Assembly: GCF_004765795.1 (NCBI RefSeq)
Contig: NZ_SBIV01000005.1
Span: forward strand, 62,001-126,000
Origin: Halorussus marinus
Lineage (GTDB): Archaea > Halobacteriota > Halobacteria > Halobacteriales > Haladaptataceae
Direction: 5' to 3'
DNA: 64,000 nucleotides
Part shown: positions 5,558 through 21,771 of the stretch, in pieces
Position numbering within the stretch: position 1 is the stretch's first letter
Layout of the letters: each line of letters begins with the position of its first letter
Program-made: the position numbers and the translations under genes
Notes under the pieces: generated by a model
The model's input: the letters and a program-made list of their open reading frames with translations, nothing else
The model's database searches: none
What the model was told of the DNA's origin: nothing

Positions 5558-6790
5558 TCACTCGTCGAGGATGTTCTCGGCGAGCGCCGGGACGAAGGTG
5601 CCCACGTCGGTCACCATCCCGATGGCCTGTGCGCTCCCGCGGTCCAGCAGTTGGGTGACCGTCGCGGGGTTGATGTCGACGCAGACGACCCGGGTGGTCG
5701 ACGGCAGGCAGTTGCCGACCGCGACCGAGTGCAGCAGCGTCGACAGCATCAACACCATGTCGGCCTCGTGGGCCTGCTCGCGGATCGCGTTCTGGGCCTC
5801 GACCGCGTCGGTGATGGTGTCCGGAAGCGGGCCGTCGTCGCGGATCGATCCCGCCAGCACGTAGGGCACGTCGTTGTCGACGCACTCGTACATCACGCCG
5901 TCCTCGACGATGCCCTCTTGGACCGCCGGCTCGATCCCGCCCGCCCGGATGATCTCGCTGATCGTGTAGATGTGGTGTTTGTGGCCCTTCCGCGGGCTCT
6001 CGAGGGTCTCGACGTCCATCCCGAGCGAGGTGCCGTACTGACCCCGTTCGAGGTCGTGGACCGCGAAGCCGTTTCCGGCCGACAGCGCGTCGACGTACCC
6101 CTCCCGGACCAGCCGCGCGAGCGCGTCGCCCGCCCCGGAGTGGATGAGCGCGGGCCCGACGACCGCGAGCACCGACCCGCCCTCGGCTTTCGTCTCCTCG
6201 AGTGCCTCCGCGACCTCCCGGATCAGCGACCCGGAGGGCCGCTCGGCCGACACCCCGCCCTGCATGAAGCCGAACGGGCCGCCAGACCCCCGGGGTCGCT
6301 CGGGCGGGTCGACCCGGACGCCGGCCTCGTCGGTGGCGACGAGGTCGCCCTCCTCGATGGCGTTGAGGACTTTGGTGTACGCCCGCGGGCCGCCGTCGGC
6401 GTCGGGATCGACCACGACCGCACAGTCCATCTCGATGTTCTCGACGTCGAGCCACTCGCCCTCGTAGCGAACCTGCGTGGGGTGGTTCGTCGTCGAGTAA
6501 AAGCCGTGCGGGACGACCCGGTCGGCCGGGGCCGGCTCTAAAGTCGCGTCCGGGGGCTCGGCGAGGTGGGCGCCGTGCTGGTGGAGTTCGTGGAGGATCT
6601 CCCGAAGGGTCTGCTCGTCGTCGGCTTTCACCGTCATCCGACAGAACGACTCGGCCTCCTTGTGCTTGCCCACGTCGAACACCTCGACGTCGAAGTCGCC
6701 CCCGAGGTCCATCACCGCGCCGAAGCACTGTTGCATCGTCCCCGAGTCGATGATGTGGCCTTCGAGTTCGACCGTTCGAGCTACCGTCAT
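5558..6790 (-). CDS. TIGR00300 family protein (LOR/SDH conserved region; ArgZ/AgrE C-terminal ornithine cyclodeaminase-like)
   Basis: VELEGHIIDSG, FYSTTNHPT, EMDC, AGNGFAVHD, LAGSIRDDGPLPD, LHSVAVGN, VCVDINP, DRGSAQA; start taken at ATG 6790. Confidence 0.88.
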   Translation of the reverse strand: MTVARTVELEGHIIDSGTMQQCFGAVMDLGGDFDVEVFDVGKHKEAESFCRMTVKADDEQTLREILHELHQHGAHLAEPPDATLEPAPADRVVPHGFYSTTNHPTQVRYEGEWLDVENIEMDCAVVVDPDADGGPRAYTKVLNAIEEGDLVATDEAGVRVDPPERPRGSGGPFGFMQGGVSAERPSGSLIREVAEALEETKAEGGSVLAVVGPALIHSGAGDALARLVREGYVDALSAGNGFAVHDLERGQYGTSLGMDVETLESPRKGHKHHIYTISEIIRAGGIEPAVQEGIVEDGVMYECVDNDVPYVLAGSIRDDGPLPDTITDAVEAQNAIREQAHEADMVLMLSTLLHSVAVGNCLPSTTRVVCVDINPATVTQLLDRGSAQAIGMVTDVGTFVPALAENILDE

Positions 6791-6893
6791 ACGCCGGACA
6801 ACGGAACCGGCTCTCTTTAGCGTTCGCACGCCGACGGGCGACCCCGACCGACGGTCGGTGGTCGGCCGGCGCGACCGGAGCCGACGGCCGGGG

Positions 6894-7559
6894 TTACGGC
6901 CCGTCGACGTACGTCGAGACCAGCTTCGATTCGACCCGCTGGAGGTGTTCGCTCACCGTCGCGGGCGAGAGATCGAGGTCGGCCGCGAGCTCGCGGTGGG
7001 TCGTCTCCCGGGGCACCTCGTAGTACCCCTCGGCGACAGCGAGCTCGAACAGTTCGAGCTGTCGGTCGGTCAGGACCGACGACAGCCGGCCGGTACCGGG
7101 GTCGTACTCGCCCGTGCGCTCGAGGTCGAGTCGGAACCCCTCGGGGAGGTCGGCGGCCGCCCGCTGGATCGCCCGGCTGGTCCCGATGACGGTGAGCTCG
7201 AACCCCCGACCGCTCGGCGGGTCGATCACCGACAGCGGCCAGTCGACGACGATCTCGTGCTCGTGGAGGATCGAGAGCAACTCCCCGGCGACCGCCGCGG
7301 TCCGACACTGGACGTACGCCACGCCCCGCTCGCCGTCGCCGGCCACGTCGTACGCGATGGCGTCCTCGTCGTCGGCGAGCAGTCGCCGCGCCTCCTCGAG
7401 ATCGCCTCGGAGCTCCAGCAGTTCGGCGTACGCCTCGTCGCGGATCGGGCTCACGTACCGGATCGCCTCGACCGACATCGCGTCGGACGATGCGAACGCG
7501 TCGTCGAGCGGGAGGACCGACAGGTCGGTCCACGTCAGCGTCACGGTCGCGTAGCGCAT
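6894..7559 (-). CDS. Bat-type (HTH_10) transcriptional regulator
   Basis: C-terminal LTDRQLELFELAVAEGYYEVPRETTHRELAADLDLSPATVSEHLQRVE; divergent from the P450 gene. Confidence 0.9.
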   Translation of the reverse strand: MRYATVTLTWTDLSVLPLDDAFASSDAMSVEAIRYVSPIRDEAYAELLELRGDLEEARRLLADDEDAIAYDVAGDGERGVAYVQCRTAAVAGELLSILHEHEIVVDWPLSVIDPPSGRGFELTVIGTSRAIQRAAADLPEGFRLDLERTGEYDPGTGRLSSVLTDRQLELFELAVAEGYYEVPRETTHRELAADLDLSPATVSEHLQRVESKLVSTYVDGP

Positions 7560-7646
7560 CGCGGGACGATACGGCCCCGCCCCGTAAAAAGACACCTAGG
7601 ATGCTCGGATACACACGTAGGTGTCTCCGGCCGGTATTCGAGACCA

Positions 7647-9408: not shown

Positions 9409-10257
9409 ATGGCCGACCTCGCGTTCTCGACGAACGCCTACACGAACCACTCGCTTTCCGAGGCCGTCGACCGGATCGCCGACCACGGCTACGCCGGCGT
9501 CGAACTGCTCGGCGACGCCCCCCACGCGTACTTCCCCGAGTTCGGCGACGAGGACCGCCGAGCCCTGACGGCGGCGCTCGATGCGACCGACCTCGCGGTG
9601 TCGAACGTCAACGCAAACACCGCGATGGGGTACTACGACGACGCCCCGCCGTCGGCGTTCTTCGAGCCGAGCCTCATCACCGCCGACGACGACCGCCGGT
9701 CGTGGCGGGTCGAGTACACCAAGCGCGCGATCGACCTCGCCGACGCGGTCGGATCGCCGGCGGTCTGCGTCGCGACCGGGCGGCCGTTGCCCGGAAACCC
9801 GCCCGAGCGCGCCCGCGAGCACCTCGAAGCGTCGCTCGACGAGATCCTCGACTACGCCGAGCCTCGCGGCGTCGAGGTCGGCATCGAGTTCGAGCCCGAA
9901 CTCCTGATCGAGTGCACCGACGAGGTGCTCGAACTGATCGAGACGGTCGACCGCGACGCGCTCGGGGTGAACCTCGATCTGGGCCACGCCGCGGTGTACG
10001 GCGAGGACCTCGCCGAGACCATCGAGCGCACCGCCGGCCGCGTCACCGGGGTCCACCTCGAAGACATCGTCGGCGGCCGGCGCGGGAAACACTACCACCG
10101 GATCCCCGGCGAGGGCGATCTGGACTTCGCCTCGATCTTCGACGCGCTCGACGACGCCGGCTACGACGGCTTCGTGACGATGGAGCTGTACACCTACCCC
10201 GACGAGCCCGACCGGGCGGCCCGCGAGTCGATGGAGCAACTGAACCGGTACGTCTGA
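9409..10257 (+). CDS. Sugar phosphate isomerase/epimerase (xylose isomerase-like TIM barrel), ebo-cluster associated
   Basis: FSTNAY, GYAGVELL, IEFEPE, NLDLGH, VHLED, H..PGEG, GYDGFVTMELY metal-binding pattern. Confidence 0.9.
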   Translation: MADLAFSTNAYTNHSLSEAVDRIADHGYAGVELLGDAPHAYFPEFGDEDRRALTAALDATDLAVSNVNANTAMGYYDDAPPSAFFEPSLITADDDRRSWRVEYTKRAIDLADAVGSPAVCVATGRPLPGNPPERAREHLEASLDEILDYAEPRGVEVGIEFEPELLIECTDEVLELIETVDRDALGVNLDLGHAAVYGEDLAETIERTAGRVTGVHLEDIVGGRRGKHYHRIPGEGDLDFASIFDALDDAGYDGFVTMELYTYPDEPDRAARESMEQLNRYV

Positions 10258-10258
10258 C

Positions 10259-11536
10259 CTACGACTCCGCGGCGGCCGACCGGATCGCGTCGGCGAGCAC
10301 GTCGACCGCCAGCGGAATGCTGTCCTCGTCGACGTCGAACGTCGCGGTGTGGTGGCCGGTCGGGTTGCTCGATCCGACGCCGACGTACGTCGCCTCGCCG
10401 CCGCGTTGCTGGACGGCCCGCATCAGCCGGGTGGCGTCTTCGCTCCCGCCGAGCGCGTCCTCGTCGCCGTCGAGGACGGTCGCCCCGCGGTCTTCGGCGG
10501 CCGCCGAGACCGCATCGACCAGTCGGTCGTCGCACTCGGCGCTCGGCGCGCCGTCGCCGAACTCGACGGAGGCCTCACAGCCGTGCTTCTCGGCGGCGGC
10601 CCGCAGGACGGTCTCGGCCCGGTCCTGCATGTAGTCTCGCAGTTCGGTGGTCTCGCCCCTGACCTCGCCCTCGATGAACGCCTCCTCGGCGACGATGTTG
10701 GTCGCGGTGCCGCCCCCGACGACCCCCGCGTTGACCCGGGTCGCGCCGTCGCCGTGGCGCGGGATGCCGTAGAGGTCCTCGACCGCCGCCGCCATCGCCC
10801 GGACGGCGTTGGCCCCGCCGTCGGGGTCGTTGCCGGCGTGGGCCGGCTCGCCGTCGAACTCCGCGTCGAAGCCGTTGATCGCGAGGAACGACTCGATGCC
10901 CGGGATGACGGTCCCGACCTCCCGATCGAGCCCGACGTGGACCGCCAACAGCGAGTCGACGTCTTCGAGGTGGCCGCTCCCGACGATCGAGGCGGCGCCG
11001 GCGCCCAGTTCCTCGGCGGGCTGGAAGAAGACCTTGAGCGTGCCCTCGAAATCGCTGTCGGCGATCGCCTCGACGACCCCGACTCCGATCGCGGCGTGGG
11101 CGTCGTGGCCGCAGGCGTGCATCCGGTCGTCGAACCGCGAACGGAACCCCTCGGCCGCGGGGTAGTGGTCGTCGTCGGTCGACTCGCGCTGGGGCAACGC
11201 GTCGATGTCGACCCGGAGCCCGACGGTCGGCCCCTCGCCGCGCTCGATCACGGCCACGGCGCCGGTGTAGCCGTCGCCGACCTCGTCGAGGAACGCCTCG
11301 TCGACGCCCGCCTCGCGGGCCCGTTCGCGCTCGCGCTCGAGGTCCTCGTCGGCGGGCGGTCGGAGCCGGTCTTCGGTCAGCATCTCGGGGCCGACGTGGA
11401 GCTCGTCGACGCCGATCGATTCGAGCTCCTCGACGATGCGGGCGGTGGTGTAGAACTCACACCAGCTGAGCTCGGGGTGTTCGTGCAGGTCTCGCCGGAG
11501 CCGGATCAGCCGGCTCTCGGAGTCGGTCGTCGCCAT
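10259..11536 (-). CDS. M20D amidohydrolase (AbgA-like)
   Basis: LRRDLHEHPELSW, LRVDIDALP, MHACGHDAH, FFQPAEE, GGSEDA, HHTATFDVDE; start at ATG 11536. Confidence 0.93.
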   Translation of the reverse strand: MATTDSESRLIRLRRDLHEHPELSWCEFYTTARIVEELESIGVDELHVGPEMLTEDRLRPPADEDLERERERAREAGVDEAFLDEVGDGYTGAVAVIERGEGPTVGLRVDIDALPQRESTDDDHYPAAEGFRSRFDDRMHACGHDAHAAIGVGVVEAIADSDFEGTLKVFFQPAEELGAGAASIVGSGHLEDVDSLLAVHVGLDREVGTVIPGIESFLAINGFDAEFDGEPAHAGNDPDGGANAVRAMAAAVEDLYGIPRHGDGATRVNAGVVGGGTATNIVAEEAFIEGEVRGETTELRDYMQDRAETVLRAAAEKHGCEASVEFGDGAPSAECDDRLVDAVSAAAEDRGATVLDGDEDALGGSEDATRLMRAVQQRGGEATYVGVGSSNPTGHHTATFDVDEDSIPLAVDVLADAIRSAAAES

Positions 11537-11601
11537 GGCTCCACGAACGAACAGTGGTCCCATTAAACACACTGAACCGGCAGGCCGGGACCGTCCGGCG
11601 A

Positions 11602-12987
11602 TCACGCTCGATCGAGTAGCGACGGCGCCTCGAAGCCGGCGTCGAGGCCCTCGACGCCAAGCAGGTCGGCGAGCGTCGGCGCGACCGCCCGGGCGTCGAC
11701 CGCCCCGTCGGCGACCGACTCGTCGGGCGCGGCCGGGCCGCCGAACCCGTAGACGCCGAGCGTCGCGTCGTCGACCCGCCCGTGCGAGCCCTGAATCTTC
11801 GAGGGGTCGAGCGACGCCAGCCCCTCGTCGCCGAAAAAGAGCTCGCAGGGGTCGAAGCCCGGTTTCGCGTGGATGTCCATGTCCGTGGCGTAGTAGGGGG
11901 CGTCGGCGCGGTCGGTCCACCAGTAGTACTGGAACCACGCCGTCGGCTCGGCGACGACCACGAGGTCGCCCGCGTTCGGGTGGTCGAGGCCGTACTCCGC
12001 CCGGTCGTCGCCGGTCGCGATCCGATCGATCCCGTCGAGGTCCGCGAGCGCCTCGCGGGCGTCCCCGATCGCCCCTCCGTCGGCGTAGACGTGGGCGACC
12101 TGATGGTCGACCATGGCGAACGCCGCCGACCCGGCTACGTCGACCTCCTCGCCGCCCTCGCCGTCGTCCCGCACGGCGAGCAGGTCGGCCGCCCGGAGCG
12201 CGCGGTTCGGGAAGACGGGCGTCTCGACCGCGTGGAAGCCGTACTCGCTGACGACGTTGATCGCGGTCTCGTTCCACCGGTCGCCGCCCCGGAGGAACTC
12301 GAGAAACTCCCCGACCATCGCGTCGACGGTCTCGACCGCCGCGGCCTGCTCGTCGGAGTCGGGGCCGTACCGCTGGCCGTCGTAGTCGAGGTGGGGGACG
12401 TACACCCACAGCAGATCGGGGTCGTAGCGCTCGACCGCCTCGCGGGCGGCGGTCAGGATCCACTCGGTGCCCCGCTCGTTGGCGCCCGGCCCCCAGTAGT
12501 GGTGGAGCGGGAAGTGACCGTGGTCGGCCTCCAGGTGGTCGTAGAAGTCGTCGGGGTTGGTCCAGCAGTTCATCTCGATCAGGTCGTTGTTCTCGTCCTC
12601 GATCGGCGAGGGAGTCACCGCCACGTCGGCGGACGTCCCGATGAGGTGCTGGAAGAACAGCGCGCCGGTCGTGAGCCCGGCGTCGCTGGCGGTCTCCCAG
12701 AGCCGGTCGCGGTCGCCCCGGTCGCGCTCCCAGAACGCCACGTCGTCGGTCGCCCGGTCGTACTCGCCGCTCGAAACGTCGCCGTGGGTCGCGGGCGACT
12801 GGCCGGTCGCGAGCGTCGTCTGGACCGGGACGGTCACCGCCGGGAACGGCGGCCGGAGGTCGGCGGTCGGGCCGCCGTCGAGCAGTTCGGTCAGGTTGGG
12901 CGCGCGACCGCCGCCGAGGTGGTCGCGCTGGAGCCCGACCACGTCGAGGACGATCGCCCGACCCGCGGCGCCCCCGGCCCCGCTCAT
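11602..12987 (-). CDS. Alkaline phosphatase superfamily nucleotide pyrophosphatase/phosphodiesterase (EboF-like)
   Basis: LDVVGL, FPAVT, YVPHLDY, VSEYG, VDHQVAHVY, DIHAKPGFDPCELF, GSHG; its ATG overlaps the ino1 stop (ATGA). Confidence 0.88.
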   Translation of the reverse strand: MSGAGGAAGRAIVLDVVGLQRDHLGGGRAPNLTELLDGGPTADLRPPFPAVTVPVQTTLATGQSPATHGDVSSGEYDRATDDVAFWERDRGDRDRLWETASDAGLTTGALFFQHLIGTSADVAVTPSPIEDENNDLIEMNCWTNPDDFYDHLEADHGHFPLHHYWGPGANERGTEWILTAAREAVERYDPDLLWVYVPHLDYDGQRYGPDSDEQAAAVETVDAMVGEFLEFLRGGDRWNETAINVVSEYGFHAVETPVFPNRALRAADLLAVRDDGEGGEEVDVAGSAAFAMVDHQVAHVYADGGAIGDAREALADLDGIDRIATGDDRAEYGLDHPNAGDLVVVAEPTAWFQYYWWTDRADAPYYATDMDIHAKPGFDPCELFFGDEGLASLDPSKIQGSHGRVDDATLGVYGFGGPAAPDESVADGAVDARAVAPTLADLLGVEGLDAGFEAPSLLDRA

Positions 12988-14201
12988 CGGTCGGCCTCCG
13001 TCCCGGACGAGCCCGCGTGGCGCTCGACGTAGGCTTCGAGCAGGTCGAACTGCCGGGAGAGGTCGTGCTCGTCGACGCCGAGCGGCGACTTGAAGAACGA
13101 CGCGAGCTGGGGCTGGACCCCCGACTCGCCGGCCTCGTCGGCGTGGGCCGCGAGCCGTACGAGGTCGAGGACGAGGGGCGCGGCCAGCGCCGAGTCCGAG
13201 CCCTCCCAGGTGAACTGCATGGTCATCTGGGTGTCGAGAAACCCCTCGAAGTGGATGTAGTCCCACGCGGTCTTCCAGTCGCCCAGCGACGGCGTGTAGT
13301 CGATCCGCACCCGGTTGTGGCCCATGTCCGGGAGGATCGAGTCGAGCACGCCGCCCTTGCTGGCGAGCTTACCGGCCTCGTTGGCCTCGTCTTCGAGCAC
13401 CTGCCCGTCGGTGTTGCCGAGGATGTTGTGGCCCTCCCACGACATGACCCGGAGGTTCCGCCCGGCGAACATCGGCGCGAGCGCCGACTTCACGAGCGTC
13501 TCGCCGGTCTTCGCGTCTCGACCCATGTGGGGGACGCCCTCCTGGCGGGCGAGGTCGTCGAGCCCGTCGAGCGCCGACCCGGTGCTGGGCGTGAAGTTGA
13601 CGTACGGGTGGCCGTCGGCGATCGCGGCGTAGGCGTACAGCGAACTCGCGGGGAGGTCCTGATCGTCGTCCGCGATGGCGCGTTCGACCGCCTCGCGGGT
13701 GTCGTATCGGTCGGGGGCCGCGAGCTCTGGCTCGGTCGAGGCCACGTTGACCACGACCAGTCGGTCGGCGTCGACCGCCCGGCGGAACGACTCGTAGTCG
13801 TCCCGGATCTGGTCGACGACCTCCTCGACGCCGAAGCGGTCTTCGAGCGGCGGCCCGTCCCCGAGATCCGCGACCGCCTCGCCGCAGTTGACGGCGGTCC
13901 CCGTCTTGATCCGGCCGTCGATCTCGCGGAGGTCCTCGGCCACCGCCTCGACGGTCTCGGCGGTCGGGACCCCGCTCTCGGAGAGCGACCGGGCGGTCTC
14001 GACCAGCCCCGTCTCCCGGATGTCGTGGCCGCCGAACGCGAACTCCTCGACCGCGGGCAGGTCGAGGCGCGACGCGGGTTCGCGGCCCGTCACCATCCCC
14101 GTCTCGTCCGTCCGACCGTGCGCGATCGCGCGCGCGCCCGCCATCGCAGTCGTCGCAACGTTGCCGCGCGCCCCGATCAGCCAGACCCCTGTTTTCGTCA
14201 T
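12984..14201 (-). CDS. ino1: Myo-inositol-1(3)-phosphate synthase
   Basis: GARGNVAT Rossmann motif, VNVASTE, YVNFTPS, GRDAKTGETL, NILGNTDG, SK, DWKTAWD, DSALAAPLVLD, FFKSP. Confidence 0.93.
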   Translation of the reverse strand: MTKTGVWLIGARGNVATTAMAGARAIAHGRTDETGMVTGREPASRLDLPAVEEFAFGGHDIRETGLVETARSLSESGVPTAETVEAVAEDLREIDGRIKTGTAVNCGEAVADLGDGPPLEDRFGVEEVVDQIRDDYESFRRAVDADRLVVVNVASTEPELAAPDRYDTREAVERAIADDDQDLPASSLYAYAAIADGHPYVNFTPSTGSALDGLDDLARQEGVPHMGRDAKTGETLVKSALAPMFAGRNLRVMSWEGHNILGNTDGQVLEDEANEAGKLASKGGVLDSILPDMGHNRVRIDYTPSLGDWKTAWDYIHFEGFLDTQMTMQFTWEGSDSALAAPLVLDLVRLAAHADEAGESGVQPQLASFFKSPLGVDEHDLSRQFDLLEAYVERHAGSSGTEADR

Positions 14202-14254
14202 CCCAACCGAGTACGCCAGCGAGCCCCTTCGTTCTTATGGGCTACCTGAGATGT

Positions 14255-14270
14255 TTTTCCGGGCGGAAAA
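14255..14270. promoter_or_regulatory. Palindrome in the divergent ino1/tatD promoter region (candidate operator)
   Basis: TTTTCCG-GG-CGGAAAA with perfect 7-bp arms, inside an AT-richer intergenic region. Confidence 0.35.
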
Positions 14271-14371
14271 TACGACCCCGGCAAGTCGCGGCCGTTCCTG
14301 CCGGCAGTATAGTATCACTACGATGAGGAAACAACTCCATAACAAAGTGGCTACGGGCCGGTATCCCGACG

Positions 14372-15172
14372 ATGCGGATCATCGACCCACACATGCACAT
14401 GGTGTCCCGGTCGAGCGACGACTACGAGCGCGCTCGACGCGCGGGCATCGAGTGCTGTATCGAACCGGCGTTCTGGAGCGGCACCGACAAGCGACACGCC
14501 GAGTCGTTTTTCGACTACTTCGAGCAGATCATCGACTTCGAGACCGACCGCGCCGAGCGGGCGGCGGGGATGGACCACTACGTCACCATCGCGCTCGAAC
14601 CGAAAGAGGCCAACTACCCCGAGATGGCCGACCGAGTCATGGAACGCATTCCCGAGTACCTCGACCGCGAGAACGTGGTCGGAGTCGGCGAAATCGGACT
14701 CGATCAGGGCACCGACGAAGAAGAAGAGGCGTTCCGGCGCCAGCTCCGGATGGCCGAGGAGCGCGAGCTCCCGGTCATCGTCCACACGCCCCACGAGAAC
14801 AAGCCCGAGGGGACCGAGCGCCTCGTCGAACTGATCGAAGACGAGGGCGCGACCCAAGAGCGGATCATCATCGACCACAACACCGTCGACACCGTCGAAA
14901 CCGCGGTGGCGACCGACTGCTGGGTCGGGTTCACTCTCTACCCCGGCAAGATCGAAGCCGAGGCCGCCATCGACCTGCTCGAAGAGCACGGCACCGACAA
15001 GATGATCCTCAACAGCGCGGCCGACTGGGACCCCTCCGACCCGCTGGCGGTCCCGAAGGCCCGCGACAAGATGCTCGATCGGGGCTGGGACCGCGATGCG
15101 GTCCGGAAGGTCGTCTTCGACAACCCCTACGAGTTTTTCGACCAGTCGCCGAACTTCGACTACGAGCGGTGA
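14372..15172 (+). CDS. TatD-family metallohydrolase (EboB-like)
   Basis: IDPHMHMVSRSSDDY, EPAFW, VGEIGL, VIVHTPH, IIDHN, GFTLYP, NSAADW.PSDPLAVPK; matches the ebo-type TatD subfamily pattern. Confidence 0.9.
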   Translation: MRIIDPHMHMVSRSSDDYERARRAGIECCIEPAFWSGTDKRHAESFFDYFEQIIDFETDRAERAAGMDHYVTIALEPKEANYPEMADRVMERIPEYLDRENVVGVGEIGLDQGTDEEEEAFRRQLRMAEERELPVIVHTPHENKPEGTERLVELIEDEGATQERIIIDHNTVDTVETAVATDCWVGFTLYPGKIEAEAAIDLLEEHGTDKMILNSAADWDPSDPLAVPKARDKMLDRGWDRDAVRKVVFDNPYEFFDQSPNFDYER

Positions 15173-15174
15173 CG

Positions 15175-16002
15175 ATGGAGTTCGCATTCTCAGCCAACGC
15201 GTTTCAGGAGTACACTCCGGTCGAGACCGTCGAGGAGCTCGCGGCCATCGGCTACGACGGCGTCGAACTGCTGTTGGGGGGCTCGCACCTCCACCCCGAC
15301 GACACCGGCCCCGACGAGATTCGGGCGGTCGAGGACGCCCTCGAGGAGACCGGGCTCGCGATCAGCAACTGCAACGCGTTTATGGTGTCCGAGGAGGACT
15401 TCCAGCATCCGTCGTACATCGAGAAAGACCCCGAGTACCGCCGCGAGCGCGTCGAGTACACGCTGGGCGCGCTCGAACTGGCCGACGCGTTCGGCGCCGA
15501 GTACATCTCCGTCCAGCCCGGCGGGCCGATCCCCGAGGGCAAGTCCCGCGAGTGGGGGATGGAGACGTTCGCCGAGAGCATCCGCGAGGTGGTCCCGGCC
15601 GCCGAGGAACTCGGCGTCGACGTGCTCGTCGAGCCCGAACCCGACCTCCTGATCGAGACCACCGACCACTTCCTCGACTTCGTCGACCGGATCGACTCCG
15701 AGGCGGTCGGCTGTAACTTCGACGCGGGCCACCTGTTCTGCGTCGGCGAGGACCCCGCCGCCGCGGTCGAGCGCCTCGAAGCCCACACCGGCCACTACCA
15801 CGTCGAGGACATCCCCGAGGACCGGAGCCACGAGCACACCCAACTGGGCGAGGGCGCGATGGACATCGAGGGCTTTCTCGACGCGGTCGCGTCGACGGGC
15901 TACGACGGGTTCGTCACGGTGGAGCTCTACCCGTATCGGGAGACCGCCGCCGAGACCGCGCGCGAGGCGTACGCGTACCTCGACGAGCGCGGGTGGGCGT
16001 AG
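15175..16002 (+). CDS. Sugar phosphate isomerase/epimerase (TIM barrel), paralog of 9409-10257
   Basis: ATG 15175; FSANAF, GYDGVELL, VEPEPDLLIE, NFDAGH, YHVED, GEG, GYDGFVTVELY. Confidence 0.9.
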   Translation: MEFAFSANAFQEYTPVETVEELAAIGYDGVELLLGGSHLHPDDTGPDEIRAVEDALEETGLAISNCNAFMVSEEDFQHPSYIEKDPEYRRERVEYTLGALELADAFGAEYISVQPGGPIPEGKSREWGMETFAESIREVVPAAEELGVDVLVEPEPDLLIETTDHFLDFVDRIDSEAVGCNFDAGHLFCVGEDPAAAVERLEAHTGHYHVEDIPEDRSHEHTQLGEGAMDIEGFLDAVASTGYDGFVTVELYPYRETAAETAREAYAYLDERGWA

Positions 16003-16935
16003 GTGGGCGTGACTCGGAGCGACGCGACCGGCCTCCGGGCCGCGGTCGGCGCGTACGCCGAACTGCTCCGGGTCCCGAACCTCTTTACCGCGCCGCCCGA
16101 CGTGATCGTCGGCGCGGCGCTGGCCGCGGCCGCCGGCGCGACGGTCCCGCTCGGTGCGACCGCGGGGCTCGCGGTCGCGTCCGCCCTGCTCTACGCCGGG
16201 GGCACCACGCTGAACGACTACTTCGACGCCGCGGTCGACGCCGCCGAGCGCCCCGAGCGCCCGATCCCCTCCGGACGGGTCTCGCGGGCGGCCGCGCTCG
16301 GCGTCGGCCTCTCGCTTTTGGGCGGCGGCGTCGCGGTGGCGGCCGCGGCCGGCGGCGCTCGCGGGGGGCTGGTCGCGGCGGCGCTCGCGGCGGCGGTGGT
16401 GCTGTACGACGCCGGGCTGAAGGGTAGCGCTCCGGGATTTCTGACGATGGGATCGACGCGCGGGCTCAACGTCTTTCTGGGCACGACCGCCGCCGGGCTC
16501 GCGCCCTCGGTGGCCCCGGCGTGGCTGTTCGCGGTCCCGGTCGTCGTCGCCGGCTACATCGCGGCGGTGACGTCTATGGCCGCCGACGAGGCGACCGGCG
16601 GGGACCGGCGGGCGATCGCGCTCGCGGGCGCGGCCGCCGTCGCGGCGGGCGTCGTGGCCCCCGCGCTCGTCTGGGCGGTCGGGCCCGGCGCGGTCGCCGT
16701 CGGGGCGAGCGGGCTCGCCGCGGTCGGCTTCCTCGCGTGGACGGGCGGCGCTCTCCGGGCGGCGTACCGCGACCCGACGCCCGAGACCGTCGGCCCCGCG
16801 GTCGGCACCTGCGTCCTCGGGCTCGTCGCCCTCGACGCGGCGTTCGCGGCCGTCGCTGGGGCCGAGTGGGCCGCGGTCGCGCTCGCGTTTCTCCTCCCGG
16901 CGGTCGGGCTCTCTCGGGCGTTCGACGTCTCCTGA
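16003..16935 (+). CDS. UbiA-family prenyltransferase (EboC/SCO3242-like)
   Basis: ELLRVPNLFTAPPD, NDYFDAAVDAAERPERPIPSGRV, LYD..LK, MG..RGLN; multiple TM helices. Confidence 0.9.
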   Translation: MGVTRSDATGLRAAVGAYAELLRVPNLFTAPPDVIVGAALAAAAGATVPLGATAGLAVASALLYAGGTTLNDYFDAAVDAAERPERPIPSGRVSRAAALGVGLSLLGGGVAVAAAAGGARGGLVAAALAAAVVLYDAGLKGSAPGFLTMGSTRGLNVFLGTTAAGLAPSVAPAWLFAVPVVVAGYIAAVTSMAADEATGGDRRAIALAGAAAVAAGVVAPALVWAVGPGAVAVGASGLAAVGFLAWTGGALRAAYRDPTPETVGPAVGTCVLGLVALDAAFAAVAGAEWAAVALAFLLPAVGLSRAFDVS

Positions 16936-17088: not shown

Positions 17089-19047
17089 ATGTCACGAGAC
17101 AACGAACAGACGAGCGGAATCGGCGACCCGTCCTCGCGGCGAACGTTCCTCAAGGCCACCGCGGCCGCGGGAGCGCTCGTCGGGGTAGGCGGCGTCGCGG
17201 CGGGACAGGAGCGCCAGGAGTTCGTCTTCGGCGGCGAGGTCGCGGGCTGGATGGGCCGAGAGCCCTCGGAGATCGCGGACACGACGAACCCGACGCTCGA
17301 ACTCGAACCCGGACAGGAGTATGCGTTCACCTGGGAGAACACGGACGGCCGACCCCACAACGTCGCCATCCTCGACGGCGAGGGCGAGGCGCTCGAATCG
17401 ACCGAGATCATCAACGAGGAGGGCGCGACACAGACCCTGCAGTTCTCGGCGACCGAGGAGATGGCCGAGTACGTCTGTGAGGTCCACCCCGCGTCGATGC
17501 GGGGCTCGATCAGCTTCGGCGGGGAGACGACCCAAGCCGAGGAGTCCCAGGAGCGGTTCATGCCGTTCGGCGCCGGTGCGGGCGTCGAGAAGGTCGCCGA
17601 AGGGCTGGTCTCACCGGTCGGGTTCGAACCCGCGCCCGACGATTCGGGGCGGGTGTTCATCCTCGACCAGCCCGGCCGGCTCTACGTCCACGACGGCGAA
17701 CAGCTTCAGGACGAGCCGTTCCTCGACGTCTCGGACATGCTGGTCGACGTCGGCGGCCGAGAGAGCGGCCCGTTCGACGAGCGCGGACTGCTCGGGCTGG
17801 CGTTCCACCCCGAGTTCGCCGACAACGGTCGGTTCTTCCTGCGGCTGAGCGTGCCGCTCGGTGACCCGCCGTACGTGAGCTCCGCCGAGTGGGGCGAGCG
17901 CCCCGGCGAGTTCGACCACATGGAGGTGCTCTCGGAGTTCCAGGCAAGCGAGGACCTCTCGAGCGCCGATTCCGAGTCCGAGACGCGACTGCTCGAGATG
18001 CCTTCGCCCCAGTTCAACCACGACGCGGGGGCGGTCGCCTTCGGACCCGACGGCTACCTCTACGTGCCGACCGGCGACGGCGGCGACGCCGACGACACGG
18101 GGCTCGGCCACGTCGAAGACTGGTACGACGCGAACGAGGGCGGCAACGGGCAGGACGTCACCCAGAACCTGATGGGCGGCGTGCTCCGCATCGACGTCGA
18201 CAACGAGGGCGAAGACCTGCCGTACGCCATCCCGGAGGACAACCCGTTCGCGGAGGGCGGCGACTTCGCCGACTACGACGGACTACCGGAGTACTACGCG
18301 TGGGGACTGCGCAACCCGTGGAAGGCGTCGTTCAACGACGGCGACTTCTACGTCGCGTCGAACGGGCAGAACCTCTTCGAGCAGGTCGACATCGTCGAGA
18401 AGGGCGGCAACTACGGCTGGAACGTCAAGGAGGCGACCCACTGCTTCAGCACGGACAGCCCCAACGACCCGCCCGAGGACTGTCCGGACAGCACGCCCGA
18501 CGACGTCCGGGGCGGCGAGCCGTTGCTCGACCCCGTCATCGAGTACCCCCACACCTACGAGGGTCGCGGGGTCGGCGTGTCGATCATCGGCGGGTACATG
18601 TACAACAACGACGCCATCTCCGGGCTGAACGGCAAGTACGTCTTCGGCGACTACAGCCAGACGGGAGCCGACCCCGCGGGCCGGATCTTCGCGGCGACGC
18701 CGTCCGAGAGCGAGGGCGAACTCTGGTCGCTGGAGGAGGTCCAGCTCGAGGGCTCGCCGAACGGACAGCTCAACATGTACGTCCTCTCGTTCGGACGGGA
18801 CAACGACGGCCGCCTCTACGTGATGGGCAACGACAGCGGCGTGCCCCAGGGCGAGACCGGCGTCGTCTACCGGATAGTCCCGGCCGGCGAGGGCGAGCAG
18901 ATATCGGCGCCCCAGGGCGAGGACATGACGACCGAGGGCGACGGCGAGATGACGACGACGGCGGAAGGCGAGAGCATGACAACGACCGAAAGCGAGAGCA
19001 TGACGACCGAGGGCGACGGCGAGATGACGACGACCGAGAGCGAGTAG
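17089..19047 (+). CDS. Tat-exported PQQ-dependent sugar/sorbosone dehydrogenase with N-terminal cupredoxin (halocyanin-like) domain
   Basis: SRRTFLK Tat motif; type-1 Cu ligands PHNV...YVCEVHPASMRG; GSDH motifs ERGLLGLAFHP, FNHDAG, FGPDGYLYV..GDGG, GLRNPW, GGNYGW. Confidence 0.9.
   Translation: MSRDNEQTSGIGDPSSRRTFLKATAAAGALVGVGGVAAGQERQEFVFGGEVAGWMGREPSEIADTTNPTLELEPGQEYAFTWENTDGRPHNVAILDGEGEALESTEIINEEGATQTLQFSATEEMAEYVCEVHPASMRGSISFGGETTQAEESQERFMPFGAGAGVEKVAEGLVSPVGFEPAPDDSGRVFILDQPGRLYVHDGEQLQDEPFLDVSDMLVDVGGRESGPFDERGLLGLAFHPEFADNGRFFLRLSVPLGDPPYVSSAEWGERPGEFDHMEVLSEFQASEDLSSADSESETRLLEMPSPQFNHDAGAVAFGPDGYLYVPTGDGGDADDTGLGHVEDWYDANEGGNGQDVTQNLMGGVLRIDVDNEGEDLPYAIPEDNPFAEGGDFADYDGLPEYYAWGLRNPWKASFNDGDFYVASNGQNLFEQVDIVEKGGNYGWNVKEATHCFSTDSPNDPPEDCPDSTPDDVRGGEPLLDPVIEYPHTYEGRGVGVSIIGGYMYNNDAISGLNGKYVFGDYSQTGADPAGRIFAATPSESEGELWSLEEVQLEGSPNGQLNMYVLSFGRDNDGRLYVMGNDSGVPQGETGVVYRIVPAGEGEQISAPQGEDMTTEGDGEMTTTAEGESMTTTESESMTTEGDGEMTTTESE
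18925..19044 (+). repeat. Coding tandem repeats MTT(E/T)... at the dehydrogenase C-terminus
   Basis: MTTEGDGE-MTTTAEGES-MTTTESES-MTTEGDGE-MTTTESE; an identical 35-nt DNA segment starts at both 18925 and 19000. Confidence 0.85.
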
Positions 19048-19129
19048 CCCTCGCAGTTCGGTCACGCGCAGGCGCTCATTTTTCGGCATCGACGCCAGCG
19101 CTAAGTGGACGCGCTCGATAGCGAACGCC

Positions 19130-20256
19130 ATGAGCGACGCCGACACGGATCCGTGGCTGGCCGGCGGTCTCGCGGCCCGGAACGCGCTCCGGGCCGCCTC
19201 GACGCCGACTCGCCGGCGGTCCTCGCGACCGTCGCCGGCGCCGAGGGGGCGGCCTACCGCCGCCCGGGCGCAAAGCGGGTGGTCGAGTCCGACGCGGCGC
19301 GGGCCGGAGACACCGAGGACCCGCTGGCCGACCTCGCGGCGGCGGCGCTCGACGACGGTCCGCTCGCCCGGACGTTCGACCTGACGGCCGACGGGGGGAC
19401 GCTCGGCCGGGGACTGGGGTACAGCGGCGTCGTCGACCTGCTGGTCGAACCGATCGACGCGAGCGTCGAGCCGGCGCTCGACCGGATCGCGGCGGGCGAG
19501 CGGGTCGCCGTGGTGACGGTCACGGGCGGCGACCGGGCGCCGGTCGGCGCGCGAGCGATCGCGACCCCCGACGGCGGCGTCGAGGCCGCCGACGCGAGGC
19601 CACCGATCCCCGACGACGTGCTGGCCGACGTTCGGCCGACGGCCGGCGACCTCGCGGCCGCCGGCGAATCCGCCCGGATCACCGCCGAGACCGACCGCGG
19701 GACGGCGACGGTGTTCGTCGACGGCTACGCGCCCGCGACAGAACTCCTCGCGCTCGCCGGCGACCTCGACGTGCGCCCCGTCGCGCGGTTCGCCCGCGAG
19801 GCGGGCTTTCGGGTGACGGTCGCGACCCCGACCGGGACCGGGATCGACGCCGGCGACGTTCCGGCCGCCCACCGGGTCCTCGCGATCCGGCCCGCGGACC
19901 TCGCCGACGCTGTCGGGCGGCCCGCCGACACCTACGCCGTGCTCCTGTCCCACGACTTCGAGGCCGACCGACTCGCGCTGGCGTCCCTGCTCGACACAGA
20001 CGTTCCCTACGTCGGCGTGATGGGGCCCCGCGAGCGCTTCGGGGCGCTGGCCGAGGCGCTCGCCGAGGACGGACGCGACCTCTCGGACGCCGACCGCGAC
20101 CGGATCGCCTCGCCGGTCGGCCTCGACCTCGGGAGCGACGACCCCGCGCAGGTCGGCCTGAGCGTCGTCGCGGAGGCGCTCGCCGTCGCGAACGGCCGCG
20201 AGGGCGGTCGGCTCACCCGCGGCGAGGGGCCGATCCACCCGCGCCCGGACGTGTGA
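19130..20256 (+). pseudogene. xdhC: XdhC/CoxF-family Moco chaperone, apparently frameshifted near 19195 and degenerate
   Basis: Acidic N-terminus MSDADTDPW... (ATG 19130) is in a different frame from the XdhC body (AVLATV...EGAAYRRPGAK, SHDF..D, YVGVMGPRER, SPVGLDLG); one extra base at gcc gcc tc gac would join them. Sequencing error cannot be excluded. Confidence 0.6.
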
Positions 20257-20357
20257 CCGCGCCGCGCGACCCGCGGTTCGGCGGGCTCACGGGCGGAGCG
20301 CGCGCCGGCCGGACCCAAAGCATAACACCCCCGGGTTCGTGGTGTCTGCCAACACTG

Positions 20358-20570
20358 ATGGCGCTCGGACCGAAGCAGTGGCAGTGCAAAGACTGCGGGC
20401 GAAAGCACAGCACCGACCGCAAGCAGTGTGTCTCGTGTGGGTACAGCGTGCTCACGCCCGTCGACAACGAGCGCCGACTGAGCCGGCTCGTCTCGACCCT
20501 GCTGGCGTTGCTACCCGCTATCCTCTCGATCCTCACGATGGGGCTGTTGGCGTGGGTGCTCTTTTTCTGA
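20358..20570 (+). CDS. Small zinc-ribbon membrane protein (70 aa)
   Basis: MALGPKQWQCKDCGRKHSTDRKQCVSCGYSVL... with two CxxC motifs and a C-terminal hydrophobic helix; ATG 20358. Confidence 0.7.
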   Translation: MALGPKQWQCKDCGRKHSTDRKQCVSCGYSVLTPVDNERRLSRLVSTLLALLPAILSILTMGLLAWVLFF

Positions 20571-21771
20571 CCGCGAGGACACAGCCGGCGAGCATCAGCG
20601 CCGTCCCGTACAGCGGCGGCGTCGCCAGCGCGAGCGCGGGCGCCAGCGCTTCGAACGCCGCGTCGGGGATCGGCGTCTCGGTCACCAGCGTCTCGACGTT
20701 CGACGCGGTGAGCGCGACGTTCGAGACGAACGCGCCGGTCGCGAACAGCGCCCGTTCGGGCCCGGCCTCGAACAGGTAGAGCAGGGGCACCAACGGGAAA
20801 AACAGGAACGCGAAGTACAGCAGTAGCGACGGGAACCCGACGACCATCACCGCCATCGTGACGAAGATCGCGACGAGGCGCTCGATCGGCGTCTCGATCC
20901 GCCGGAAGGTGTACGCGACGACGGGCGCCAGCGCGAGGAACCCGAGCGCGGTGTAGGCGCTCGACGGGAGCGACGGGAACAGCACCGACAGCGGCCGGCG
21001 CACTGTGACCAGCTGGGCGGCGGGGTCGAGCCCGCCGACGAACTGGTCGTTCGAGAGCCGCGGGACCAGCGCCCGTTCGACGTACGTCAGGTGGGTGTCG
21101 ACGCCGAACGCCGCCACCCCGACCGCGAACGCCCCGACGCCGGTCGCGGTCGCGGCCGCGATCGCCCGCCACGCCCGCCGGCGGAGGAGCCAGAGCCCCA
21201 CCGCCGCGGGGAAGAGCTTGACGACCGCCGGGAGCGCGAACGCGACGCCGGCCTTCGTCTGCTCGCCGTCGACTTCGAGCCACCAGAACCCCGCCGCGAT
21301 CGCGAGCAACAGCGGGAAGTTGGTCTCGCCGTACAGGATCGAGGGCACCGAGTGGAGCGACGCGACCGCGAACGCCCCGACGAGCGCGCGGTCGACCCAC
21401 GGTAGCTCGGTCCCGCGATACCGCTCGGTGAACGCCACGAGCAACGCCGCCACGCCCACGGCGGCCGCGACGTTGACGAGCGTGTGGACCGCGAACGCGG
21501 CTTCCCACCCGTCGAGTAGCGCGTAGGGGTAGAACGCCGGGATCGTGACCGGCGGGTAGACGTAGCTGTACGGGTGGCCGGCCGGCGAGGCGGCGTAGAA
21601 GTCCCCGCCGGCCAGCGCGGTCTCGGCCGCCAGGTGGTACACCTTCAGGTCGACGCCGACGAGCGACGCTCGGCGGGCGAGCGTCGCCTCGGCGCCGGCG
21701 ATGCCGAGCAGGACGCCTGCGAGGAGGACGATGCGTGCGGGCCACGGAGAGGGCGGGGCGTCGTCTGTCAT
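20533..21771 (-). CDS. Glycosyltransferase family 87 (DUF2029, GT-C) membrane protein
   Basis: DLKVYHLAA, YVYPP, GETN, VKLFP motifs; many TM helices. Confidence 0.85.
   Translation of the reverse strand: MTDDAPPSPWPARIVLLAGVLLGIAGAEATLARRASLVGVDLKVYHLAAETALAGGDFYAASPAGHPYSYVYPPVTIPAFYPYALLDGWEAAFAVHTLVNVAAAVGVAALLVAFTERYRGTELPWVDRALVGAFAVASLHSVPSILYGETNFPLLLAIAAGFWWLEVDGEQTKAGVAFALPAVVKLFPAAVGLWLLRRRAWRAIAAATATGVGAFAVGVAAFGVDTHLTYVERALVPRLSNDQFVGGLDPAAQLVTVRRPLSVLFPSLPSSAYTALGFLALAPVVAYTFRRIETPIERLVAIFVTMAVMVVGFPSLLLYFAFLFFPLVPLLYLFEAGPERALFATGAFVSNVALTASNVETLVTETPIPDAAFEALAPALALATPPLYGTALMLAGCVLAVRKRAPTPTAPS

Follow-up and report, generated by a model that had tools for sequence, protein, structure and literature searches.

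The haloarchaeon Halorussus marinus encodes, within the window analysed here (64,000 nucleotides in full; contig NZ_SBIV01000005.1, positions 62,001 to 126,000), six genes that resemble the ebo clusters of bacteria and that probably specify a complete ebo pathway, fed by the inositol-phosphate synthase Ino1, working with a substitute for EboE and making a prenylated hydroxyquinoline. Re-reading of the window confirmed the six open reading frames (ORFs), with their strands and their coupling:

9409..10257, plus strand: TIM1, a short xylose-isomerase-like metal barrel (PF01261)
11602..12987, minus strand: EboF-like protein of the alkaline phosphatase superfamily (PF01663, Phosphodiest)
12984..14201, minus strand: Ino1, myo-inositol-3-phosphate synthase (PF07994 and PF01658)
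14372..15172, plus strand: EboB, a TatD-like metallohydrolase (TatD_DNase)
15175..16002, plus strand: TIM2, a short metal barrel (AP_endonuc_2)
16003..16935, plus strand: UbiA prenyltransferase of the EboC/SCO3242 type (UbiA)

Their Pfam matches are AP_endonuc_2 (for both barrels), Phosphodiest, Inos-1-P_synth, TatD_DNase and UbiA. A first-pass annotation of this DNA had described a divergent pair of tightly coupled units and a second, paralogous barrel at 9409, and both are real: eboF and ino1 overlap on the minus strand in an ATGA, the plus-strand gaps are 2 nt between tatD and TIM2 and 0 nt between TIM2 and ubiA, the divergent ino1/tatD spacer measures 170 nt, and TIM1 and TIM2 are 40% identical to each other. 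Codon use, with a GC content at third codon positions of 0.89-0.96, and the acidic composition of the soluble proteins fit the haloarchaeal host.

EboB is 40-44% identical over its full length to bacterial EboB proteins encoded next to EboA and EboE, and keeps the invariant residues H9, E107, H138, D168/H169 and D218. The EboF-like protein shares 34-44% identity over 379-468 amino acids (aa) with EboF from annotated bacterial ebo clusters, while Ino1, present as a single copy in the genome, is 44-48% identical to Ino1 from the ebo clusters of Streptomyces. The UbiA protein reaches 188.6 bits on the EboC profile NF035940 (cut-off 250) and 180.8 bits on the SCO3242 profile NF045897 (cut-off 260), compared with 57-58 bits on the model for digeranylgeranylglyceryl phosphate (DGGGP) synthase (cut-off 296) and likewise poor scores on the MenA and CtaB models; MenA and CtaB are separate genes elsewhere in this genome. 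In a phylogenetic tree from which five long branches were left out, 14 haloarchaeal UbiA proteins form a single clade with a support of 98, which falls among the EboC/SCO3242 sequences and lies far away from the CtaB, MenA and LyeJ-like genes of this genome, so that scores and tree together exclude DGGGP synthase, MenA and CtaB. As far as sequence comparison goes, EboB, EboC, EboF and Ino1 are orthologous to bacterial ebo-cluster genes, which bears out the proposal that this is an ebo-family cluster in which Ino1 replaces EboD. The absence of EboA, already suspected from the nearby DNA, extends to the whole genome, where the EboA domain was not found although the positive control scored.

Close relatives of the UbiA protein occur in 28 and close relatives of Ino1 in 27 of 201 Halobacteria genomes, the same genomes in both cases except for G171 with its lone UbiA. 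In 24 of the 27 UbiA loci from haloarchaea, the full set of six falls within a stretch of about 20 kb; such grouping is beyond chance, and the cluster is real and conserved. Two outcomes that the first-pass annotation had named as fatal to its proposal, a UbiA protein grouping with other prenyltransferase families and genes not conserved together, have therefore not come about. The usual layout in relatives is eboF-ino1 divergent from tatD-TIM2-ubiA-TIM1; TIM1, present in 25 of 27 loci, commonly stands directly after ubiA, unlike in the window, and in genomes G025 and G122 the cluster genes are split but still all present. Carriers include Haloferax, Halorubrum, Natrinema, Natrialba, Halococcus, Haloarcula and Halorussus, and on pHV3 of Haloferax volcanii the cluster is found as HVO_RS01055-RS01025, with ino1 as RS01050, eboB as RS01040, TIM2 as RS01035, ubiA as RS01030 and TIM1 as RS01025. 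In the literature searched, which left most subscription journals outside, HVO_B0209-B0214 or the Haloferax cluster were covered solely by a review of genome annotation and a paper on zinc fingers. In 12 of 39 named loci (e.g., L095:6906-7115), but not in the window, ino1 and tatD are separated by a gene for a 69-aa protein, which is probably the zinc-binding micro-protein HVO_B0212 (PMC11241148). The lone EboC-type UbiA of G171 (L215:4889-5917) has an integrase and a gene of the erythromycin esterase family in its vicinity; the other cluster genes were not found near it, and there is no Ino1 in that genome. On a Halomarina plasmid (L113), an Ino1 with 67% identity is encoded among glycosyltransferases with no ebo genes nearby, and this type of Ino1 therefore has a second use.

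The presence of Ino1 and UbiA in one cluster could also point to a role in membrane lipid synthesis, with Ino1 serving archaetidylinositol formation and UbiA standing in for DGGGP synthase. No canonical DGGGP synthase was found in the genome, whose best match to one is the cluster UbiA, and HVO_B0213, which on an inferred mapping of locus tags is most likely the Ino1 of the H. volcanii cluster, is listed among open questions of inositol-lipid synthesis in a 2021 annotation review (PMC8305020). However, the canonical enzyme and the cluster UbiA are both missing from two other genomes of the genus, Haloferax genomes carry both, Ino1 was not found in 174 of the 201 genomes, and no CDP-alcohol phosphotransferase is linked to the cluster, the three of this genome residing on other contigs. 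We consider such a role highly improbable, in keeping with the earlier view that the cluster does not look like ordinary archaetidylinositol synthesis.

What ebo genes make was held to be poorly defined by the first-pass annotation, a statement outdated by a preprint that assigns thallusin/saccharoquinoline to them (bioRxiv 10.64898/2026.05.21.724671). According to this preprint, thallusin, a molecule that shapes seaweeds, is formed from a cyclitol and L-aspartate, the latter entering the quinoline whole; deletion of eboB, eboC, eboE or eboF abolishes thallusin; EboA is dispensable in planctomycete producers; and actinomycetes use ino1-3 instead of eboD, the Ino1-type Saccharomonospora being a thallusin maker (10.64898/2026.05.21.724671). 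The EboC proteins of Maribacter, Stieleria and Saccharomonospora farnesylate an ester of 6,7,8-trihydroxyquinaldate in vitro, and by a loose homology rule of E<=1e-3 ebo clusters were counted in two archaeal phyla (10.64898/2026.05.21.724671). An earlier study of EboC agrees with the preprint (PMC9235831). Saccharoquinoline is described as a drimane joined to 6,7,8-trihydroxyquinoline-2-carboxylic acid, with thallusin as its ring-opened form (PMC6410326). Because EboC homologues farnesylate 6,7,8-trihydroxyquinaldate, a prenylated aromatic is a likelier product than the isoprenoid-cyclitol lipid or carrier proposed in the first-pass annotation, in which EboC would prenylate an inositol-derived cyclitol directly. 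That proposal, a standing one in the literature (PMC5133447; PMC6282210), is compatible with Ino1 as a supplier of the cyclitol, with the 30% identity between the cluster UbiA and the O-prenylating DGGGP synthase, and with the occurrence of unidentified isoprenoid-bearing lipids in Halobacteria (PMC10704169); set against the loss of thallusin in ebo deletion strains and the prenylation of hydroxyquinolines by EboC from three phyla, one of them with an Ino1-type cluster, it nevertheless appears very unlikely.

With regard to EboE, a barrel of bacterial clusters, the archaeal cluster differs. On the EboE model (NF035939) both barrels score 22-26 bits against a cut-off of 250, and EboE was not found in any of the 201 Halobacteria (E<=1e-10), with positive controls at 409 and 470 bits; EboA and EboD gave no match in the genome or in 39 loci, the EboA control scoring. 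TIM1 carries the metal-site motifs E160-x-E162, D190/H193, H216 and ELY. A quick tree of 91 barrels, which does not resolve the order among families, separates EboE, SCO3241-type barrels, TIM1 and TIM2 into four clades, TIM1 grouping with orthologues from Bacillus and locus L132 (support 90) and TIM2 with orthologues from Bacillus, Phycisphaerae and metagenomes (support 99). Identities with the SCO3241-type barrels of Streptomyces, which likewise form a separate clade, are 28-33%, Ino2 and Ino3 of Saccharomonospora themselves lying outside this comparison. Neither barrel thus belongs to the EboE family, although TIM2 agrees with EboE in position: it directly follows tatD, in the slot taken by eboE in Streptomyces and Deinococcus.

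The distribution of TIM2 points in the same direction. TIM2 was not seen alongside EboE in 80 metagenome loci, while TIM1 co-occurs with true EboE in L132. Among 121 Planctomycetota genomes, eboB was detected in 98, EboE in 73 and a TIM2 orthologue in 20 (at least 186 bits, four TIM1-like matches of 128-150 bits being set aside). The 98 genomes with eboB divide into 72 with EboE only, 20 with TIM2 only, none with both and six with neither, and EboB stays 36-49% identical across the swap. We infer that TIM2 is a separate barrel family filling the role of EboE; TIM1 is a probable helper of Ino1, with an Ino2-like role towards an EboD-like intermediate, and with both tasks covered the archaeal cluster would be a complete pathway. 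The occurrence of eboB in 98 of 121 Planctomycetota, small metagenome-assembled genomes included, looks more like the distribution of a housekeeping trait than like a signal from an algal niche.

The same data bear on the possibility that the cluster follows the ebo logic but, in the absence of EboE and EboA, leads to another prenylated aromatic with a different ring or a C20 chain. The missing EboE in Halobacteria, the missing EboA in this genome and the separation of the four barrel clades are in its favor. The clean exchange of TIM2 and EboE within one phylum, accompanied by an EboB that stays 36-49% identical, and the reported dispensability of EboA in planctomycete producers make it unlikely. 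Even less credence can be given to TatD and TIM barrel as DNA-repair nucleases directed against DNA-damaging metabolites, comparable to YtkR4/YtkR5 of the yatakemycin cluster. Nuclease activity of such a TatD/TIM pair has been described and the idea extended to ebo-like clusters with Ino1 and UbiA (bioRxiv 10.1101/2024.09.16.613364), but the identity between EboB and YtkR4 is no more than about 24%, loss of eboB is reported to abolish thallusin, and Ino1, UbiA and EboF are left without explanation, so that we regard this as scarcely credible.

The Ino1-fed, EboE-substituted pathway that we favor would start with the cyclization of glucose-6-phosphate to inositol-3-phosphate by Ino1, as expected from the chemistry of its family and the motifs present. 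TIM1, perhaps together with EboF, may turn inositol-3-phosphate into a deoxy-inosose like the product of EboD; no inositol dehydrogenase is encoded in the cluster, which bears on this step. EboB, TIM2 and EboF would then condense the deoxy-inosose with L-aspartate and aromatize the product to 6,7,8-trihydroxyquinoline-2-carboxylate, in analogy to the incorporation of aspartate and the essentiality of eboB, eboC, eboE and eboF in bacteria; which enzyme performs which reaction is putative. Finally, the membrane protein EboC would prenylate and perhaps cyclize this compound to a saccharoquinoline-type meroterpenoid, as suggested by the in vitro prenylation seen with bacterial EboC. The product could be oxidized to an ortho-quinone or ring-open to thallusin and would probably be used extracellularly, together with neighboring Tat-exported propeller-cupredoxin proteins.

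Support for this pathway comes from the orthology of EboB, EboC, EboF and Ino1, the bacterial thallusin data, the joint travel of six genes, the mutual exclusion of TIM2 and EboE, the layout on a Bacillus plasmid described below and the host-like codon use. Several points weigh against it. The UbiA protein stays below the cut-offs of both the EboC and the SCO3242 family, which does not exclude EboC because the canonical EboC proteins of Azospirillum and Deinococcus, at only 89-96 bits, score lower still. The quick tree, in which relationships between barrel families do not resolve, does not place TIM2 as the sister group of EboE, and the mutual exclusion, with its nominal P, overstates independence because the planctomycete genomes are related and partly incomplete. 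Furthermore, eboE is reported as essential for thallusin in Stieleria, and the main text of the same preprint reports no producer without EboE (10.64898/2026.05.21.724671). The literature searched yielded neither metabolite nor expression data from archaea.

In comparison with known systems, the cluster is a third ebo architecture, with Ino1, two short barrels and no EboE. It works like the thallusin/saccharoquinoline pathway but is not a strict member under a definition that rests on a core of four genes, namely eboB, eboC, eboE and eboF, EboE being absent. The Actinomycetota-type cluster, consisting of ino1, an SCO3242-type prenyltransferase, an SCO3241-type barrel, eboA, eboB, eboE and eboF (Saccharomonospora CNQ-490; Streptomyces plasmids L100, L101, L107 and L112), is similar in that Ino1 replaces EboD, two barrels are present in total, secreted propellers often adjoin, and identities amount to 42-44% for EboB, 35-40% for EboC, 40-44% for EboF and 44-48% for Ino1. 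It differs from the haloarchaeal cluster, which has neither EboE nor EboA, short barrels outside the SCO3241 clade, a divergent layout and an archaeal host. With the canonical eboABCDEF of Bacteroidota, cyanobacteria and Proteobacteria, thallusin producers among them, the EboB, EboC and EboF orthologues are shared, whereas EboA, EboD and EboE were not found here and Ino1, TIM1 and TIM2 occur instead. The same EboE-less gene set is carried by a plasmid of Bacillus sp. JAS24-2, with one-to-one orthologues of TIM1 (46%) and TIM2 (45%) and an HHIP-like protein of the glucose/sorbosone dehydrogenase (GSDH) type beside the set. This plasmid, the TIM2-bearing Planctomycetota and metagenome loci L119, L120, L131, L184 and L191 represent bacterial two-barrel clusters without EboE that differ in gene order; a characterized cluster of this kind was not found in the literature searched. 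Genes for O-methyltransferases flank several bacterial ebo clusters (L123, L130, L132, L107 and L112), which suggests methylated congeners.

Directly after ubiA lies a gene that the first-pass annotation omitted, yet which recurs with the cluster:

17089..19047, plus strand: accessory Tat-exported fusion of a cupredoxin and a GSDH/HHIP-like propeller (TAT, Copper-bind and GSDH domains)

After collapsing 62 haloarchaeal loci to 54 distinct ones, a GSDH or DUF7133 propeller gene is present within 3 kb in 21 of them and inside the cluster in 10; this count replaces raw gsdh counts of 12/27 and 18/39, which include cupredoxin-only matches. The ebo-adjacent propellers come in several arrangements and belong to three subfamilies, and with four to five such genes in the 3.76 Mb of this genome, the chance expectation is about 2%. 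Clustering of all ORFs from 63 haloarchaeal loci returned the propeller/cupredoxin group as the sole neighbor recurring across genera, while the remaining flanking genes looked lineage-specific. HHIP-like propellers occur in 24 of 27 ebo-positive vs. 72 of 174 ebo-negative genomes (2.1 vs. 0.5 copies), DUF7133 in five of 201 genomes, all ebo-positive, and a third subtype in five of 201, four of them ebo-positive; some type of propeller is present in 26 of the 27 ebo-positive genomes. An obligate link between HHIP-like propellers and ebo genes fails on the 72 ebo-less carriers, five of which also lack EboB; 55 proteins scanned near their propellers included no alternative cofactor genes. In bacteria the link is weaker: a GSDH gene stands beside four of the 27 metagenome loci whose flanks were scanned (82 of their 98 candidate ORFs) and some propeller beside five of 13 plasmid clusters viewed. 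All 25 Planctomycetota with DUF7133 have eboB, while DUF7133 is found in none of the 23 without it, although these are small genomes. The propeller of the window is a candidate user or modifier of the pathway product. Multicopper oxidases, too, are repeatedly encoded close to ebo clusters or to their propellers, in Haloferax as well as in other haloarchaea and in Streptomyces (L095:13228-14883, L045:17261-19543, L211:11310-13070, L100 and L112), the one near the H. volcanii cluster presumably being the laccase LccA.

A more far-reaching possibility, tentative and in our view rather unlikely, is that the ebo pathway constitutes a second, peptide-independent route to a redox cofactor resembling pyrroloquinoline quinone (PQQ). 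The ortho-quinone of saccharoquinoline, i.e., quinoline-7,8-dione-2-carboxylate with a terpene tail, would then be the prosthetic group of a large class of secreted orphan propeller oxidoreductases (HHIP-like GSDH, ThuA-GSDH, DUF7133/PVC-type proteins and perhaps ScyE) that would pass electrons to cupredoxin or haem c domains fused to them; oxidative breakdown of the cofactor would give thallusin, and haloarchaea would make the cofactor with an EboE-free set of enzymes. The alignment-based model of the window propeller (pLDDT 84.5; 34.6 from the single sequence) predicts a six-bladed fold matching those of HHIP and of soluble PQQ glucose dehydrogenase (sGDH) and aldose sugar dehydrogenases (Asd). 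Residues were mapped on sGDH via the genome's own Asd-type gene. In this alignment, ebo-adjacent propellers keep the equivalents of H144, D163, R228, N229 and G247, among them the His, Arg and Asn placed around the ortho-quinone; the window propeller shares these residues with sGDH (PDB 1C9U)/Asd. It lacks those of K377, R406 and R408, as do all 26 non-Asd rows for Lys377 and the Arg406/Arg408 pair, some rows being partial there; both Asd-type genes of the genome retain R406 and R408. Unlike sGDH/Asd, the window propeller is also closer to HHIP, is fused to a cupredoxin and occurs in a class in which pqqC was not found in 201 genomes (positive control scored). We take the roles of R228, N229 and R406 in sGDH to match those of their CcPDH equivalents. 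H144 of sGDH is reported as catalytic, and K377 and R408 as contacting PQQ carboxylates (PMC6881789). On structural grounds, quinoline-7,8-dione-2-carboxylate plausibly presents the metal-binding face of PQQ, made up of nitrogen, carbonyl and carboxylate, without two of its three carboxylates, which fits the loss of K377, R406 and R408.

In PQQ, the acetone adduct sits at C5. Formation of this adduct has been reported (PMC3541126), and streptoquinolines from Streptomyces mycelia are likewise described as carrying a group derived from acetone at C-4', beside the carbon that bears the nitrogen, and a ketone at C-5', for which the authors suspect addition of acetone to a ketone precursor (PMC12862604); an ortho-quinone precursor is thereby implied. 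Yurchenko et al. considered that the enzymes of scytonemin synthesis might receive a cofactor from ebo (PMC5133447), and the monomer that accumulates is reportedly the same in ebo mutants and scyE mutants (PMC6282210). Four observations count against a cofactor. Close homologues of the window propeller (up to 61% identity) occur in ebo-less genomes, complete ones included, which would therefore depend on scavenging of the compound or on a different one. In 33 of the 54 loci no propeller is in view. The Nostoc monomer is described as cytoplasmic in ebo mutants and periplasmic in the scyE mutant (PMC6282210), a difference not explained by ScyE lacking its cofactor. Other six-bladed enzymes are reported to bind PQQ by different residues (10.64898/2026.07.10.737718). 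Alternatively, binding or modification of the product might be the task of the propeller, e.g., in the unassigned oxidation to thallusin. The main text of the thallusin preprint contains none of the words "PQQ," "cofactor," "quinone" and "dehydrogenase" (10.64898/2026.05.21.724671), and no paper joining thallusin with a quinoprotein was found in the literature searched.

The remaining genes of the region are not conserved with the cluster:

10259..11536, minus strand: M20 amidohydrolase (PF01546)

This gene, between TIM1 and eboF and unmentioned so far although inside the span first annotated, was rejected as a member because it is present in 0/27 and 0/39 related loci. P450, XdhC, GT87, HTH, ODC and ADH neighbors were likewise rejected (0-2/27 and 0-2/39 loci). 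Upstream of TIM1 are an NPN-dependent ornithine cyclodeaminase (5558-6829), an HTH_10 regulator (6894-7595) and a cytochrome P450 (7665-9008), and downstream (19105-21771) an XdhC-family maturation factor and a GT87 glycosyltransferase. A sigma-70 promoter scan of the region gave no match, the model being bacterial and unsuited to archaea. Searches for canonical DGGGP synthase found none in this genome and none in three more genomes of the genus; the ebo UbiA is missing as well from two of these three, while the canonical enzyme is present in a genome from the same family. At the site of the relatives' DGGGP synthase (C1:98001-102000, L227) lies a gene for 383 aa without a Pfam match, adjoining a long PcrB-family gene, and a divergent UbiA is encoded at C1:312725-313585 (L220); the genus Halorussus may have an alternative ether-lipid enzyme.

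Taken at its present strength, the probable Ino1-fed, EboE-substituted pathway places thallusin-family biosynthesis in a genetically tractable archaeon through pHV3 of H. volcanii, for which the literature searched records no metabolite of this kind. The third architecture can escape screens that require true eboE, and the swap of EboE and TIM2 offers a direct handle on an unassigned step of the pathway. If the cofactor idea were true, it would explain the use of the ebo product to the producer itself and the presence of eboB in so many of the sampled Planctomycetota, and it would show what many "PQQ-dependent" propellers without the PQQ-binding arginines really use.

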